A stretch of 12,145 bases of DNA from Alteromonas naphthalenivorans (GCA_047631715.1 JBLICC010000026.1:1-12145); one strand, 5' to 3'; positions 8,555-12,145 are shown, counted from the first letter of the stretch. Numbers and translations are program-made. Notes: generated by a model not told the origin, from the sequence alone.

Positions 8555-8576
8555 AAAAAACAAAATAGAGATAATG

Positions 8577-8984
8577 ATGAATACAAAATTTTTAAGCTTA
8601 CTACTTTTGCTCGGAACAGTTGCAGCGCCAACATGGGCTGCAGATGGTTCTGATCTTCCAGATGTGCCAAGCAGTAACCCTGCTCCAACAACTGAAGAGC
8701 TTGAAGAAGAATGCAATAGAATATTCTCTGCAGCAGAACAAGAAGCTGCACAACTAAGAAATAGAACCGGAGATCTCACAGAAGGCTTACAAGAAGCAGC
8801 AATACATATGGCAACATTAGAATACCAAACAAGAGATCAAAAAAAATTAACAACACAACAAGAACAAGACAAAGATGAAAAAGATAAAGAAATAGAAAAA
8901 CTAAAAAAAGAAAACGATCTTTTAAAAAGTACTTTTGCAGTAGGAATACTTGCAGCAGGATTATGGTATTTAATTAAAAAATAA
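8577..8984 (+). CDS. Array gene 1: leader type A, coiled coil, C-terminal TM anchor (135 aa)
   Basis: Start moved from 8523 to 8577 by alignment with sibling RBS/leader modules; MNTKFLSLLLLLGTVAAPTWA; tail TFAVGILAAGLWYLIKK. Confidence 0.8.
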   Translation: MNTKFLSLLLLLGTVAAPTWAADGSDLPDVPSSNPAPTTEELEEECNRIFSAAEQEAAQLRNRTGDLTEGLQEAAIHMATLEYQTRDQKKLTTQQEQDKDEKDKEIEKLKKENDLLKSTFAVGILAAGLWYLIKK

Positions 8985-9010
8985 ATATAAAAACCAAAAT
9001 GGAGGTTATT

Positions 9011-9799
9011 ATGAATAAGAAACTATTAAGCTTACTACTTGTACTCGGAACAGTTGCATCACCAACATGGACTGCTAATGCGGCTGCGGCTCTTGCACTA
9101 GAAGAAGAAATATACACAGAAGATCAAATTATTGCATGTTCTGTCTGCCATGATCCAGTACTAGAAGATGCAGCAAACCCTTATCGAGTTACACATTGTT
9201 GCCGTAATATATTTCATGACAGTTGCCTTACCGAATCTTTACGACATAATCCTATCTGTCCCCTTTGTCGGTCTAATAATCCTAATCAACCAGCTGTAAC
9301 AAATGGAAATAACAATGCGAGAATAACACAACTCAGAGCTGAACGAGATAATGCTATCCAAACAAGAGCAACGTTTAGAACAGAAAGAGATGCAGCTAGA
9401 ACAGAAAGAGATGCAACAAGAGCAACATTTAGACAAGAAAGAGAAAGAATAGAAAGTAACAGAGACAGAGCTATAAGAGACAGGGATGAAATAACAAGAG
9501 AAAGAGACAACGTAAGAACAGAAGCTACTACTCTGAGAAACGAAAGAGACTTTGCAAGAGGAAACATGACAGATTTAATGCTAAAAAGAGGTGGTGCTGC
9601 AATAGTAACCGCAGGATCTGTTGCCTTCTTTAATCAACCATTTTTTCCTAAAGTTCTCGCTGCTTCTCTTATTGGTGGTGCACTTTATAAAATCGAAAAA
9701 AGTAGAAATCCTATTCACATAAAAGATGCCTATAGAGAAGGCATACTAATGGGAAGTGTAATAGGTGGATTATATTGGTTAACTCACCCCTGTAAATAA
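9011..9799 (+). CDS. Array gene 2: leader type A, RING-finger-like domain, coiled coil, C-terminal hydrophobic segments (262 aa); candidate E3 ubiquitin ligase effector
   Basis: GGAGG RBS 5 nt before ATG 9011; CSVC...HCCRNIFHDSCL...CPLCR; heptad xRxERDx repeats; three Gly/Ala-rich hydrophobic stretches at the C-terminus. Confidence 0.82.
   Translation: MNKKLLSLLLVLGTVASPTWTANAAAALALEEEIYTEDQIIACSVCHDPVLEDAANPYRVTHCCRNIFHDSCLTESLRHNPICPLCRSNNPNQPAVTNGNNNARITQLRAERDNAIQTRATFRTERDAARTERDATRATFRQERERIESNRDRAIRDRDEITRERDNVRTEATTLRNERDFARGNMTDLMLKRGGAAIVTAGSVAFFNQPFFPKVLAASLIGGALYKIEKSRNPIHIKDAYREGILMGSVIGGLYWLTHPCK
9377..9415 (+). repeat. 21-bp-period tandem repeat encoding RTERDA heptads
   Basis: agaacagaaagagatgca at 9377 and 9398; flanked by two acaagagcaac(g/a)tttaga copies (TRATFR). 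Confidence 0.8.
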
Positions 9800-9832
9800 A
9801 AAATAACATTGAATTTAAATATGGAGATTATT

Positions 9833-10162
9833 ATGAATAAGAAACTATTAAGCTTACTACTTGTACTTGGAACAGTTGCCGCACCAACATGGGCAATGGA
9901 TAGTAGTGACACCGAATCAAATGCAAGCAGTACCGGCTATAGAACAGCTGAAGAATCTGCTGTTTTAAAAACTTACTTAAATGCTCAAACTCAAACTGAT
10001 GAAAAAGAATATGATACAAAAGGATTAAAAAAAGAATTAGATAGAGAAAAGAAAATAAGAGAAAGATTAGAAAAAGAGCTAGCTCAAACACAACAATTAC
10101 TTGCTTTTACTGCAACTATTGCTGCTTGCTCAGCTCTTTATATTGAATATAAAAAATACTAA
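9833..10162 (+). CDS. Array gene 3: leader type A, coiled coil, C-terminal TM anchor (109 aa)
   Basis: GGAG RBS before ATG 9833; MNKKLLSLLLVLGTVAAPTWA/MD; tail LLAFTATIAACSALYIEYKKY. Confidence 0.8.
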   Translation: MNKKLLSLLLVLGTVAAPTWAMDSSDTESNASSTGYRTAEESAVLKTYLNAQTQTDEKEYDTKGLKKELDREKKIRERLEKELAQTQQLLAFTATIAACSALYIEYKKY

Positions 10163-10185
10163 AACTAAATGACTTGGAGATTATT

Positions 10186-11025
10186 ATGAATAAGAAACTA
10201 TTAATTACACTACTTTTAGCTGGGACAACTACTATACTTTTTAGTGCAGACCGACTCCCTGAACCATTATTAGAAGCTGAAGAAACTGATGTACTCCTTG
10301 AAGAAGCAGGATCAAGAGATAGATTTATACCCGAAAGAACTCTGAATACAGCTTCTCCGTTTGGGCTAAAAGGACCTCAAAAAAGAACAAGAAGAAGTTC
10401 TTCTGCTCCATCTTTTAGTATTCCTTCAAGAACAAAGCAAATTTTAGAAACAACTGAAGATATAACTATAGAATTAGCAACATTAAAACAATTAATAAGT
10501 ATTATGCAACAACGTAATATTAGTACCCCAAATGACAACTTTGATACATTAACAAAATGGATTTTATCTCAAGACAATAGTAAAATAGAAGTCACTAAAG
10601 TCATTAGAGACATCAACCTTAGAATCACAAAAGCAGCAAAAGAAACATATGAAGAATTCAAACAATTGCCTGCAACAATGCAAGATATATATCAAGACGC
10701 ATTAACCCAATACAAACAAGACAAAGACCCTATTGTCTTTTTTAATTCTTTACAAAATATTCACGTTAAATCTATAGTGCAACGCCCACAATCAGCAAGT
10801 CCAAGATCTGGAACTTCTAGACGTGTAAGTTTTTCACCTGAATTGGTTACCAAAAGATATGAATATTCACCTACTTTTTTTGAATATTGTAAAATGCACG
10901 GAACGCATAAAATCAATAGCGAAACAAAAGAAAAAACGCTAAAAACATGGTTTAAAGAATATAAAGAACATCAACCAGAAGAAAATGATATCGAACCATG
11001 CGACTTTGAACCTATTGCAGAATAA
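10186..11025 (+). CDS. Array gene 4: leader type B, soluble protein with Ser/Arg-rich segments (279 aa)
   Basis: GGAG RBS before ATG 10186; MNKKLLITLLLAGTTTILFSAD; contains RRSSSAP and RRVSF. Confidence 0.8.
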   Translation: MNKKLLITLLLAGTTTILFSADRLPEPLLEAEETDVLLEEAGSRDRFIPERTLNTASPFGLKGPQKRTRRSSSAPSFSIPSRTKQILETTEDITIELATLKQLISIMQQRNISTPNDNFDTLTKWILSQDNSKIEVTKVIRDINLRITKAAKETYEEFKQLPATMQDIYQDALTQYKQDKDPIVFFNSLQNIHVKSIVQRPQSASPRSGTSRRVSFSPELVTKRYEYSPTFFEYCKMHGTHKINSETKEKTLKTWFKEYKEHQPEENDIEPCDFEPIAE

Positions 11026-11050
11026 TTAAATAAATAACTTGGAGGTTATC

Positions 11051-11392
11051 ATGAATAAGAAACTATTAATTACACTACTTTTAGCTGGAACAACTACTGT
11101 GCTTTTTGGTGCAGATGTACCTGATGATAGCTTAAGAAATTACATCATGTTTTCTATAAACAACATTGAACGTAAAATTACAAATCTAAAATCAGACGAT
11201 CTTAAACGATCATTTGTACAACAAGTAGACGAATGCTTAAAGGCAGATCTTACGGTTGAAGAAATTGCAGATTTTTCTGCCACTCAACCCAATGGGATTT
11301 TAGGCGTCACAGCCATACAACTCAAAAACTTTAACCTAAAATTACAATCAGAAAGATTAGAAGCAGTTTTCAACAACTTAAACAAGTTATAA
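11051..11392 (+). CDS. Array gene 5: leader type B, small helical protein (113 aa)
   Basis: GGAGG RBS before ATG 11051; MNKKLLITLLLAGTTTVLFGAD. Confidence 0.8.
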   Translation: MNKKLLITLLLAGTTTVLFGADVPDDSLRNYIMFSINNIERKITNLKSDDLKRSFVQQVDECLKADLTVEEIADFSATQPNGILGVTAIQLKNFNLKLQSERLEAVFNNLNKL

Positions 11393-11400
11393 AACTGCCA

Positions 11401-11471
11401 CCTGTTGACACTTTCGCCAAAACATTTACAATTAGAATATGTTAAACTTTAAATATAAGCTCACTTGAGCT
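11401..11471 (+). promoter_or_regulatory. Array promoter block, copy 2
   Basis: TTGACA (11405-11410)-16 nt-TACAAT (11427-11432); shares three conserved blocks with copy 1; inverted repeat AGCTCA-ct-TGAGCT at 11458-11471. Confidence 0.75.
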
Positions 11472-11485
11472 CAATGGAGATTATT

Positions 11486-12145
11486 ATGAAAAAGAATTTA
11501 TTGCTCACTCTACTTTTAGTTGGAACAACTACTGTACTTTTTAGTGCAGACAAACCTCGACTTATTAACCTTAATACAGGAAAATTAAACAGTTTAGCTC
11601 AACAGAATGCTTTAGCTGATCGTTTAAGTAAGCCTCTTGCGCGAAAAACAATTAAACTGAATGAAAAACCTAAATGTAAGACATCTAAAAAAGTGCCTGC
11701 TGCAATAGTAAAAGTTCAAGAAGAATCTTCTAAACGTTTAAGTAGACCAGCAAGTCCTGTACCTTCAGACTATTCAGCAAGTGGAAGATCTACTCCTTAT
11801 ATTCTACTATCAGAATACTCAAGCGGTAGTGTAGAATCACTTCCTTTGCTTTTACAGTCTCAGCCAACAAGTGGTCGTAGTTCATCAAGTAGATTTGAAA
11901 CGAATCAAGATGAACAAATATCTTCAAGACGTTTAAGTAGATCTACAACTCCCGTTCCCGTTAAAAAACAAGAAAAAAACATTTTATATGTTATTAATGG
12001 AAAATTACTAACTCCAGCGGCGTTTGCTATTTATTTAGATAAAAAAAACAATCCTGCAAAGTATGCTCTAATAGAAAAAAAAGAAGATCTAGCATCTCAA
12101 CGTGCTAAAGATAGACTAGACGTAACAGATAAAAACATTGATGAA
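11486..12145 (+). CDS. Array gene 6 (3'-truncated by window edge, at least 220 aa): leader type B, Ser/Arg/Pro-rich protein
   Basis: Not in ORF track; my translation from tggagattattATG gives MKKNLLLTLLLVGTTTVLFSADKPRLINLNTGK...KRLSRPASPVPSDYSASGRSTP...RRLSRSTTPVPVKK...DKNIDE with no stop before the window end. Confidence 0.82.
   Translation, partial: MKKNLLLTLLLVGTTTVLFSADKPRLINLNTGKLNSLAQQNALADRLSKPLARKTIKLNEKPKCKTSKKVPAAIVKVQEESSKRLSRPASPVPSDYSASGRSTPYILLSEYSSGSVESLPLLLQSQPTSGRSSSSRFETNQDEQISSRRLSRSTTPVPVKKQEKNILYVINGKLLTPAAFAIYLDKKNNPAKYALIEKKEDLASQRAKDRLDVTDKNIDE

Follow-up and report, generated by a model that had tools for sequence, protein, structure and literature searches.

The 12,145-nt stretch JBLICC010000026.1 (GCA_047631715.1, listed under Alteromonas naphthalenivorans), called the window below, is the entire contig C26 of assembly G000. 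The source organism has a reduced genome and belongs to the Babelota (Dependentiae/TM6); its assembly comprises 844,823 bp in 58 contigs with 35.6% G+C and is rated 90% complete. On the plus strand six genes, g1-g6, follow each other head to tail at 8577-12145, with spacers of 26, 33, 23, 25 and 93 nt. An earlier reading made from the DNA letters alone (the sequence-only reading) had described six co-oriented genes of which the first five lie 23-33 nt apart, in agreement with these values. A short module opens each gene, in which a Shine-Dalgarno (SD) site and start codon lead into a signal peptide of the Sec type; as that reading had proposed, it represents a unit of expression and export (Table 1).

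The same reading had assigned one module to all six genes. This holds for the ribosome site and the first six codons, the only parts common to all six leaders (with AGAG instead of GGAG as ribosome site of g1), while the remainder splits into two subtypes: A (...LGTVAAPTWA) on g1-g3 and B (...LLLAGTTTVLFSAD) on g4-g6. Over codons 7-20, 36-39 of 42 positions match within a subtype, compared with 19-23 of 42 across subtypes. Recounting on a register alignment reproduced the identities reported before, i.e. 68/72 for g2/g3, 69/75 for g4/g5 and 30 nt between g3 and g4. Exact runs extend over 40 nt in copies 2/3 (9006-9045) and 38 nt in copies 4/5 (10186-10223). The 30-nt identity (9822-9851 and 10175-10204) lies across the type boundary, as does the GGAGG variant that g2 has in common with g5. 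Its 30-nt core has four matches in the window at ≤3 mismatches, while none of 200 dinucleotide-preserving shuffles gave any. Among 34,453 pairs of signal-peptide-like open reading frames (ORFs) in the genome, g2/g3 (57/60) and g4/g5 (56/60) have the most similar 5' ends. Most of the other top leader-sharing pairs are plain paralogues with similar mature parts, whereas the mature parts of g2/g3 and g4/g5 are at background.

The end of the module is sharp. Similarity had been said to stop at the predicted cleavage site, and indeed it reaches background within five codons of it: over codons 26-45, 10-29 of 60 positions match within a type, against a background of 0.316 ± 0.065, the exception being g1/g3 with 29/60 (background 19/60). 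The leaders read as Sec signal peptides with an n-region MNKK or MKKN and an h-region LLSLLLVLGTVA or LLITLLLAGTTT. The c-region T-W-A or L-F-S/G is followed by A-D, where signal peptidase I would be expected to cleave. A lipobox cysteine was found neither in nor after any of the six leaders, such that they do not qualify as lipoprotein signals. The export machinery is encoded, with SecD in the window and signal peptidase I (TIGR02227, 90.9 bits) on contig C20. No conserved RNA structure was detected in the module (consensus energy -0.18 kcal/mol, 5 pairs).

Table 1. Positions of the module copies, genes, domains and promoter-like sites in the window.
Feature	Position	Strand	Description	Support
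Module copy 1, type A	8565..8639	+	weak SD (AGAG), ATG, signal peptide MNTKFLSLLLLLGTVAAPTWA	
Module copy 2, type A	9000..9076	+	TGGAGG, 6 nt, ATG, signal peptide MNKKLLSLLLVLGTVASPTWTA	
Module copy 3, type A	9822..9895	+	TGGAGA, 6 nt, ATG, signal peptide MNKKLLSLLLVLGTVAAPTWA	
Module copy 4, type B	10175..10245	+	TGGAGA, 6 nt, ATG, signal peptide MNKKLLITLLLAGTTTILFS	
Module copy 5, type B	11040..11110	+	TGGAGG, 6 nt, ATG, signal peptide MNKKLLITLLLAGTTTVLFG	
Module copy 6, type B	11475..11545	+	TGGAGA, 6 nt, ATG, signal peptide MKKNLLLTLLLVGTTTVLFS	
g1	8577..8984	+	signal peptide, acidic/Ser-rich stretch, coiled-coil-like stretch, C-terminal hydrophobic segment ending KK	without family
g2	9011..9799	+	signal peptide, RING finger, Arg/Asp/Glu-rich coiled coil, C-terminal hydrophobic segments	Pfam
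RING-finger domain of g2	9134..9271	+	residues 42-87	zf-RING_2 4.3e-7, 30.5 bits (cut-off 27.3)
g3	9833..10162	+	signal peptide, Ser/Asp-rich stretch, coiled coil, C-terminal hydrophobic segment ending KKY	single relative P0003
g4	10186..11025	+	signal peptide, then probably disordered protein with RRSSSAPSF stretch and conserved C-terminal block	
Conserved C-terminal block of g4	10822..10971	+	RVSFSPE, EYSPTF-E, MHG, W in order	BLASTP E 3e-6 to Rf of G001
g5	11051..11392	+	signal peptide, then small protein of 93 mature residues	without family
g6	11486 to beyond 12145	+	signal peptide, then Ser/Pro/Arg-rich protein; truncated by contig end	
Promoter-like site P1	8489..8516	+	TTGACT, 16 nt, TACAAT; before g1	consensus scan 10/12
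Promoter-like site P2	11405..11432	+	TTGACA, 16 nt, TACAAT; before g6	consensus scan
hemW-like radical SAM gene	7253..8407	-	left flank of the slot, divergent to the array	Pfam Radical_SAM 4.2e-27, HemN_C 1.9e-6

A dispersed, reusable module was not found when copies were counted in the genome: within G000 it is confined to the array, apart from diverged relatives on contigs C17 and C10, of which the C17 copy is a related leader. The exact module pattern had no match in public metagenome and genome contig collections, which may lack records close to the source genome. When the type-A leader was scanned as a protein pattern, none of 357 matches was confirmed, and a type-A protein profile retrieved no close relative from 261 genomes of the order. 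The C17 leader (type-A-like, 50/60 nt identical to g2) belongs to a 282-residue protein on the reverse strand (~1468-608) that carries a canonical RING-H2 domain and leucine-rich repeats and is a candidate secreted E3 ligase. In a different genus, two adjacent tiny exported proteins (L020 of G005, 9731-9970 and 9983-10192) have leaders that are 45/60 nt alike and unrelated mature parts. The pattern of a kept leader and a lost cargo may be common in Babelota.

Behind the leaders, the RING finger of g2 is the sole domain known to Pfam among the array cargos. It passes the profile cut-off; by our reading the spacing of the fourth zinc ligand is atypical, and a role as E3 ligase is only a candidate assignment. 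The proteins g1 and g3 and the tail of g2 are built alike, with an acidic or Ser-rich stretch ahead of a coiled coil and a hydrophobic segment at the C-terminus. For g1, which has an alternative ATG at 8574, all coiled-coil matches in Pfam were sub-threshold. The Atlas models of g4 and g5 are of low confidence (predicted local distance difference test, pLDDT, 0.43 and 0.49). Within g6, an internal 52-nt repeat (11712-11763, 11907-11958) encodes two copies of (K/R)RLSR-x-(A/T)-(S/T)-PVP, a motif that we take to resemble basophilic and proline-directed kinase sites.

The cargos had been called unrelated by eye, and we detected no paralogy between them by any of the comparisons made. Smith-Waterman scores against shuffles, computed for 78 pairs of 13 proteins, gave no G000 pair of mature parts with z > 3, and the BLASTP values for mature parts were E 0.066 for g1/g3 and 0.39 for g4/g6. 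With hhalign, for which g3 and P0003 (see below) were combined into one profile, probabilities stayed below 1%, although profiles this shallow leave distant homology possible. Comparisons in other frames and at the DNA level returned low-complexity matches only, Pfam searches of 7 cargo proteins at E up to 1 sub-threshold noise only, and the ESM Atlas no usable match for g4 or g5. Homology along the mature proteins, as in ordinary tandem paralogues, was hence not found. For the type-A genes an old common origin appears plausible, given the architecture common to g1, g3 and the g2 tail and the faint co-linear likeness of g1 and g3 past the leader.

Across the family, the array position corresponds to a conserved slot with hemW on one side and a DUF4381-like/DUF58/serS block (Pfam) on the other. 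The slot was assessed in 12 of the 15 family genomes, the contigs of the other 3 being too short. It holds no signal-peptide gene in G002 and G007, one in G004, G005, G009 and G010, one or two in G012, 3 in G015, 4 in G008, 5 in G006, 6 in G001 and 7 in G003. In G001, a relative of the same genus, these are Ra (coiled-coil/transmembrane, TM), Rb (174 residues), Rc (77 residues), Rd (RING/coiled-coil/TM), Re (Ser/Thr/Pro-rich) and Rf (447 residues). The comparison downstream of hemW that the sequence-only reading had suggested thus reveals a different order and content. The protein g2 resembles Rd in the RING finger (E 3e-6) and Ra in the coiled coil (E 0.002), the likeness of g4 to Rf is limited to 51 residues in a C-terminal block (BLASTP E 3e-6, genome search 7.5e-4) and g5 shows a marginal likeness to Rc (E 0.033), while no relatives of g6 were found in G000 or G001. 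Because RING, coiled-coil/TM and g4-like cargos are already present in G001, the cargo types predate the split between G000 and G001. RING proteins occur several times per genome in the family.

Two further relatives appear to come from a third organism. In a word-indexed search of 5.8 billion proteins g2 and g4 were singletons and g3 had a single relative, P0003 (whole-protein identity 43%). P0007, a full-length g4 orthologue (40% identity, E 2e-52), was retrieved by exhaustive search with a profile of the g4/Rf block. Both P0003 and P0007 are each on one 3,193-nt Logan contig and their JGI twins each on one 7,821-nt contig, most simply explained by a single contig of the third organism. The leader of P0003 is of type A and identical to that of g3 at 19/22 residues, compared with 41% in the mature part; that of P0007 is type-B-like (16/22), compared with 40% over the whole protein, leader included. 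The expectation of leaders always diverging faster than mature parts fails for fast-evolving secreted proteins; even these orthologues show the reverse. Furthermore, the type-A/g3-like and type-B/g4-like pairings appear to be kept, which favours stable leader-cargo pairs over the cargo swapping suggested before.

The g4 block ([VI]-x-F-[SA]-P-E, Y-x-P-T-F-x-E, M-H-G, W) is the only cargo block conserved in the three organisms, at 10822-10971 in the window, at L013 12631-12780 (Rf) and at residues 246-310 of P0007. It has no Pfam support and is preceded by basic residues (RRVSF in g4, KPKITF in Rf). Its sequence is reminiscent of the RVxF motif through which partners dock on protein phosphatase 1. 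Motifs like K-V-x-F are also seen in two other exported proteins of G001 (L013 8544-9068 and 15643-16230).

For dating the leader copies we counted identical codons at positions where both leaders have the same degenerate amino acid. Identical codons were found at 14/15 positions for g1/g2, 15/17 for g2/g3 and 17/19 for g4/g5 (P against codon usage 1.5e-6, 5.5e-6 and 3.8e-6), and at 12/16, 12/16 and 11/16 positions for g1/g3, g4/g6 and g5/g6, respectively. Unrelated SD-started leaders of G000 reach 5,399/13,841 (39%), and orthologues of G000 and G001 reach 63% for hemW, 74% for a PNPOx-like gene and 59% for a 624-residue exported protein. The silent sites of the g2/g3 and g4/g5 leaders are therefore less diverged than those of the flanking orthologues, which indicates that these copies are younger than the speciation. 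Leader DNA is 79-91% identical within a type in G000 and 48-59% identical among the six array genes of G001. Likewise, the g4/g5 leaders are 91% identical, against 55% for g4/Rf and 65% for g5/Rc, cargo counterparts that are weak or local matches.

A recent duplication of whole genes would have preserved the silent sites of the mature parts as well, such that recombination confined to the 5' end is needed. Within-genome copies that are closer than their cross-species counterparts, excess synonymous identity and a sharp-ended tract are what gene conversion leaves behind; in this part, the earlier proposal of recombination or gene conversion at the module is borne out. Homologous recombination is feasible in view of the exact runs of up to 40 nt and of a recA gene, which is located on contig C6. 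The rest of the genes being without detectable homology, the module is the only conversion substrate left. Two mosaics were also seen: g1 and g6 have the same promoter and 5' untranslated region (UTR) block but leaders of type A and B, and g2 combines an Rd-like RING finger with an Ra-like coiled coil.

We consider it probable that the locus represents a hypervariable tandem array, specific to its lineage, of orphan genes for Sec-exported proteins, the leaders of which are homogenised by short-tract recombination plus purifying selection. Such an array would be seeded by tandem duplication, the module descending from an old duplication and remaining under purifying selection. From time to time a leader would be overwritten from a neighbour, either by gene conversion or by unequal crossing-over, after the split from the sister species and with RecA available. 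The tract would reach upstream to the AT-rich end of the preceding gene and downstream to the point where cargo homology stops. Mature parts, largely disordered or coiled-coil, would diverge or rearrange too fast to stay recognisable. Sec would export the products, with signal peptides of 20-22 residues being removed by signal peptidase I behind T-W-A in type A and L-F-S/G in type B. After cleavage, the C-terminal segment would anchor the type-A products, those of type B being soluble. The array products are probably directed at the host.

Several points weigh against this interpretation. The tracts measure only 60-100 nt, and the pairwise tests depend on each other. The dating leans on local or weak cargo matches, i.e. 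51 residues for g4/Rf, the RING finger only for g2/Rd and a marginal E value for g5/Rc. Since the orthologues of the third organism keep the leader better than the mature part, purifying selection explains part of the pattern. No module-to-module joints were found in the assembled contigs of 4 runs, which drop rare variants and are uninformative for the parts they do not cover. Export, cleavage and operon structure of the array are themselves predictions. Separately, a joint from 8371 to 11030 in run X2 was discarded as unreliable, its shorter side comprising only 26 letters and not lying at a module.

Selection without any conversion would account for the array if the genes were old tandem duplicates, in which the ribosome site, the n- and h-regions and the 5' codon choice are constrained while the mature parts drift. 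In line with this, the leader is the best-kept part also between orthologues, the AATGGAG-N6-ATG-AAR-AAR context is common to many signal-peptide genes genome-wide, and g1 and g3, which have the same architecture, retain the faint likeness past the leader described above. The codon identity of 0.88-0.93 in the leader pairs exceeds, however, the 0.39 of other leaders of G000 that are under the same constraints as well as the 0.59-0.74 of the flanking orthologues. The array leaders of G001 have diverged, and the module folds into no conserved RNA structure that could explain a constraint on its nucleotides. Overall we regard selection only as unlikely.

Rather less credit is given to a broader scheme, in which the AATGGAG head plus leader constitutes a genome-wide platform that is placed or converted before arbitrary sequence, gives birth to exported ORFans and reshuffles effector islands, with the two leader classes as address labels. 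The signal-peptide genes of G000 favour the AATGGAG context, which in the window is located at 8999-9013, 9821-9835 and 11474-11488. Among SD-started ORFs of ≥100 aa, ATGGAG precedes 25 of 75 signal-peptide-like ORFs and 3 of 93 others (Fisher 1.3e-7), the latter preferring AAGGAG; in a looser ORF set the counts are 33/95 and 9/137, all of them being inflated by paralogy. The T of AATGGAG creates an upstream ATG that is mostly in frame (MExxM...). AATGGAG as a better SD match was rejected as explanation: the 16S tail ...CACCTCCTTTC makes AAAGGAGG ideal and the T a mismatch. This tail was found in 8/8 family genomes with a full 16S gene, which is unassembled in G000 and G001.

Types A and B could also be distinct targeting signals, one for membrane-anchored coiled-coil and one for soluble disordered cargos, sent to different destinations, which would be the reason for the conservation of each label. 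Type A is found on g1, g2, g3 and P0003, all with C-terminal hydrophobic segments, and type B on g4, g5, g6 and P0007, none of which has such a segment; the pairing in the third organism agrees with this. Against two address labels, descent from two sub-families would give a split of 3 versus 3 just as well, the C17 protein combines a type-A-like leader with a leucine-rich repeat tail and no anchor, both types look like ordinary Sec signal peptides, and labels leave the synonymous identity unexplained. We judge such labels very unlikely.

Least credible of all is a dedicated cassette system, in which the module would be a recombination handle for gain, loss and exchange of cargo with an integron-like outcome: the 30-40-nt exact runs would suffice for homologous recombination, G000 and G001 differ in the order and content of genes, the slot holds 0 to at least 7 genes across the family, a promoter block is duplicated inside the array and public assemblies break at the modules, yet attC-like repeats are missing from spacers of merely 23-33 nt, no recombinase is present on C26 or the C16 end, the module has no copy elsewhere in the genome except the diverged one on C17 and was not found in the public contig scans, leader type and cargo are paired in the third organism, and direct-repeat recombination deletes or duplicates units without swapping them. 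A scan for attC-like inverted repeats gave 2 pairs, none at the g1-g5 gene boundaries, and the 2 genome matches to the tyrosine recombinase profile PF00589 fall on C46 and C8 but on neither C26 nor C16, the array itself containing assembly gaps. The sequence-only reading is thus partly supported, with recombination at the module but not with a dedicated system.

The array is a further instance of a known pattern of secreted genes that share a leader. As nearest analogue we regard the Erp group of Borrelia burgdorferi. In these proteins the upstream region is also shared and the mature parts are unrelated, for which recombination is held responsible. Like the array, they are multicopy exported host-facing proteins with a common leader and separate mature families. 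They differ in being lipobox-Cys lipoproteins encoded on multicopy cp32 prophage plasmids with one locus per plasmid, whereas the array encodes type I signal peptides without Cys and occupies a single chromosomal slot flanked by housekeeping genes, its members being arranged head to tail with polycistronic spacing. After Akins et al. 1999, the Erp proteins are divided into OspE-related, OspF-related and Elp ('OspE/F-like leader peptide') families with a leader common to all (PMC12242104).

With concerted evolution the array has in common that paralogues within a genome are closer than counterparts across species, that tract ends are sharp, that synonymous identity is in excess and that a RecA-type pathway is available; the difference is that the tract here consists of ribosome site and signal peptide, ~70-100 nt. 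In cone-snail toxins and amphibian skin peptides the signal region is far better conserved than the hypervariable mature part. These superfamilies are, however, eukaryotic, with signal and mature part on separate exons and a recognisable mature scaffold (cysteine or helix). An integron array is likewise a co-oriented tight row of unrelated small genes with variable content behind a common promoter, in contrast to which the array has no adjacent integrase and no attC and carries its repeat at the 5' coding end with an own ribosome site. Terminal reassortment, which Stavrinides et al. are said to have described in 2006 for type III effectors, also joins a common N-terminal export signal to otherwise unrelated effector bodies; it differs in using type III signals at dispersed loci, whereas Sec signals, one tandem array and no cargo exchange are seen here.

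Two promoter-like sites were found, and P1 is conserved upstream of Ra, the first array gene of G001. P2 is situated within a 46-nt block (11401-11446) that is a copy of the P1 region (8485-8530), and the full motif occurs at just these 2 places of the genome. Together with a matching 24-nt stretch of the 5'UTR the block is present before g1 and g6 and nowhere else in the genome. A window scan gave no plus-strand terminator-like site between array genes. Two sigma-70-like promoters would produce two polycistronic units, g1-g5 and g6 onward, and every cistron would be translated from its own SD site, placed 6 nt upstream of the ATG. A palindrome AGCTCA-N-TGAGCT (11448-11491), which may act as operator or as RNA hairpin, immediately precedes the ribosome site of g6, and the g1 5'UTR holds an imperfect copy of it (8537-8560).

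The array extends past the window: the sequence goes on for 540 nt after position 12145 in a Logan contig of run X1, which includes 46 nt that match 10175-10220, i.e. the g4 module. The far side of the slot is the end of contig C16, where another coiled-coil/TM gene in array orientation, present only with its 3' end, comes after a DUF4381-like gene. Contigs of run X2 bridge g1-g2 (8910-9311, 0 differences) and g4-g5 (10940-11152, 1 difference), such that the array joints are not an assembly artefact, where the X1 and X2 runs may stem from one sampling campaign. The public X1 unitigs break exactly inside modules 2-5. The same run contains a 298-nt contig with 43 differences to hemW (7658-7955) at a depth of 4.2 compared with ~11, i.e. 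a related species co-occurs. This relative may be the origin of P0003 and P0007.

Babelota are widespread obligate protist parasites with large, mostly orphan secretomes, for the turnover of which this locus provides a datable example. For a cultured member of the phylum, signal peptides on 44% of coding sequences and an ORFan-enriched secretome are reported, with a discussion of Sec export and outer-membrane vesicles (PMC6561590). The slot is a hot spot at a fixed address, with 0 to at least 7 exported genes in one family and cargo that is unrecognisable within a genus in which hemW is 82% identical. With a leader that is kept and even re-homogenised, leader similarity is no guide to cargo homology in these genomes. 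As such arrays break short-read assemblies, effector repertoires are under-counted in metagenome-assembled genomes. The g2 RING protein and the conserved g4 block are candidates for host manipulation.

The left two thirds of the window are occupied by minus-strand genes, namely an ATP-dependent DNA ligase, tRNA-Met, secD, tRNA-Leu, the 624-residue exported protein, the PNPOx-like gene and hemW. The latter is present in 33/41 related genomes searched; the identity of 82% given above refers to G001. The DNA ligase (1238-2968) is an ATP-dependent enzyme with three domains (DNA_ligase_A_N, _M and _C), found here in a bacterium whose genome is reduced. The 624-residue protein (4837-6711), which belongs to no family, combines a conserved coiled-coil core with low-complexity ends rich in Pro and His; its identity to the G001 counterpart is 61%.

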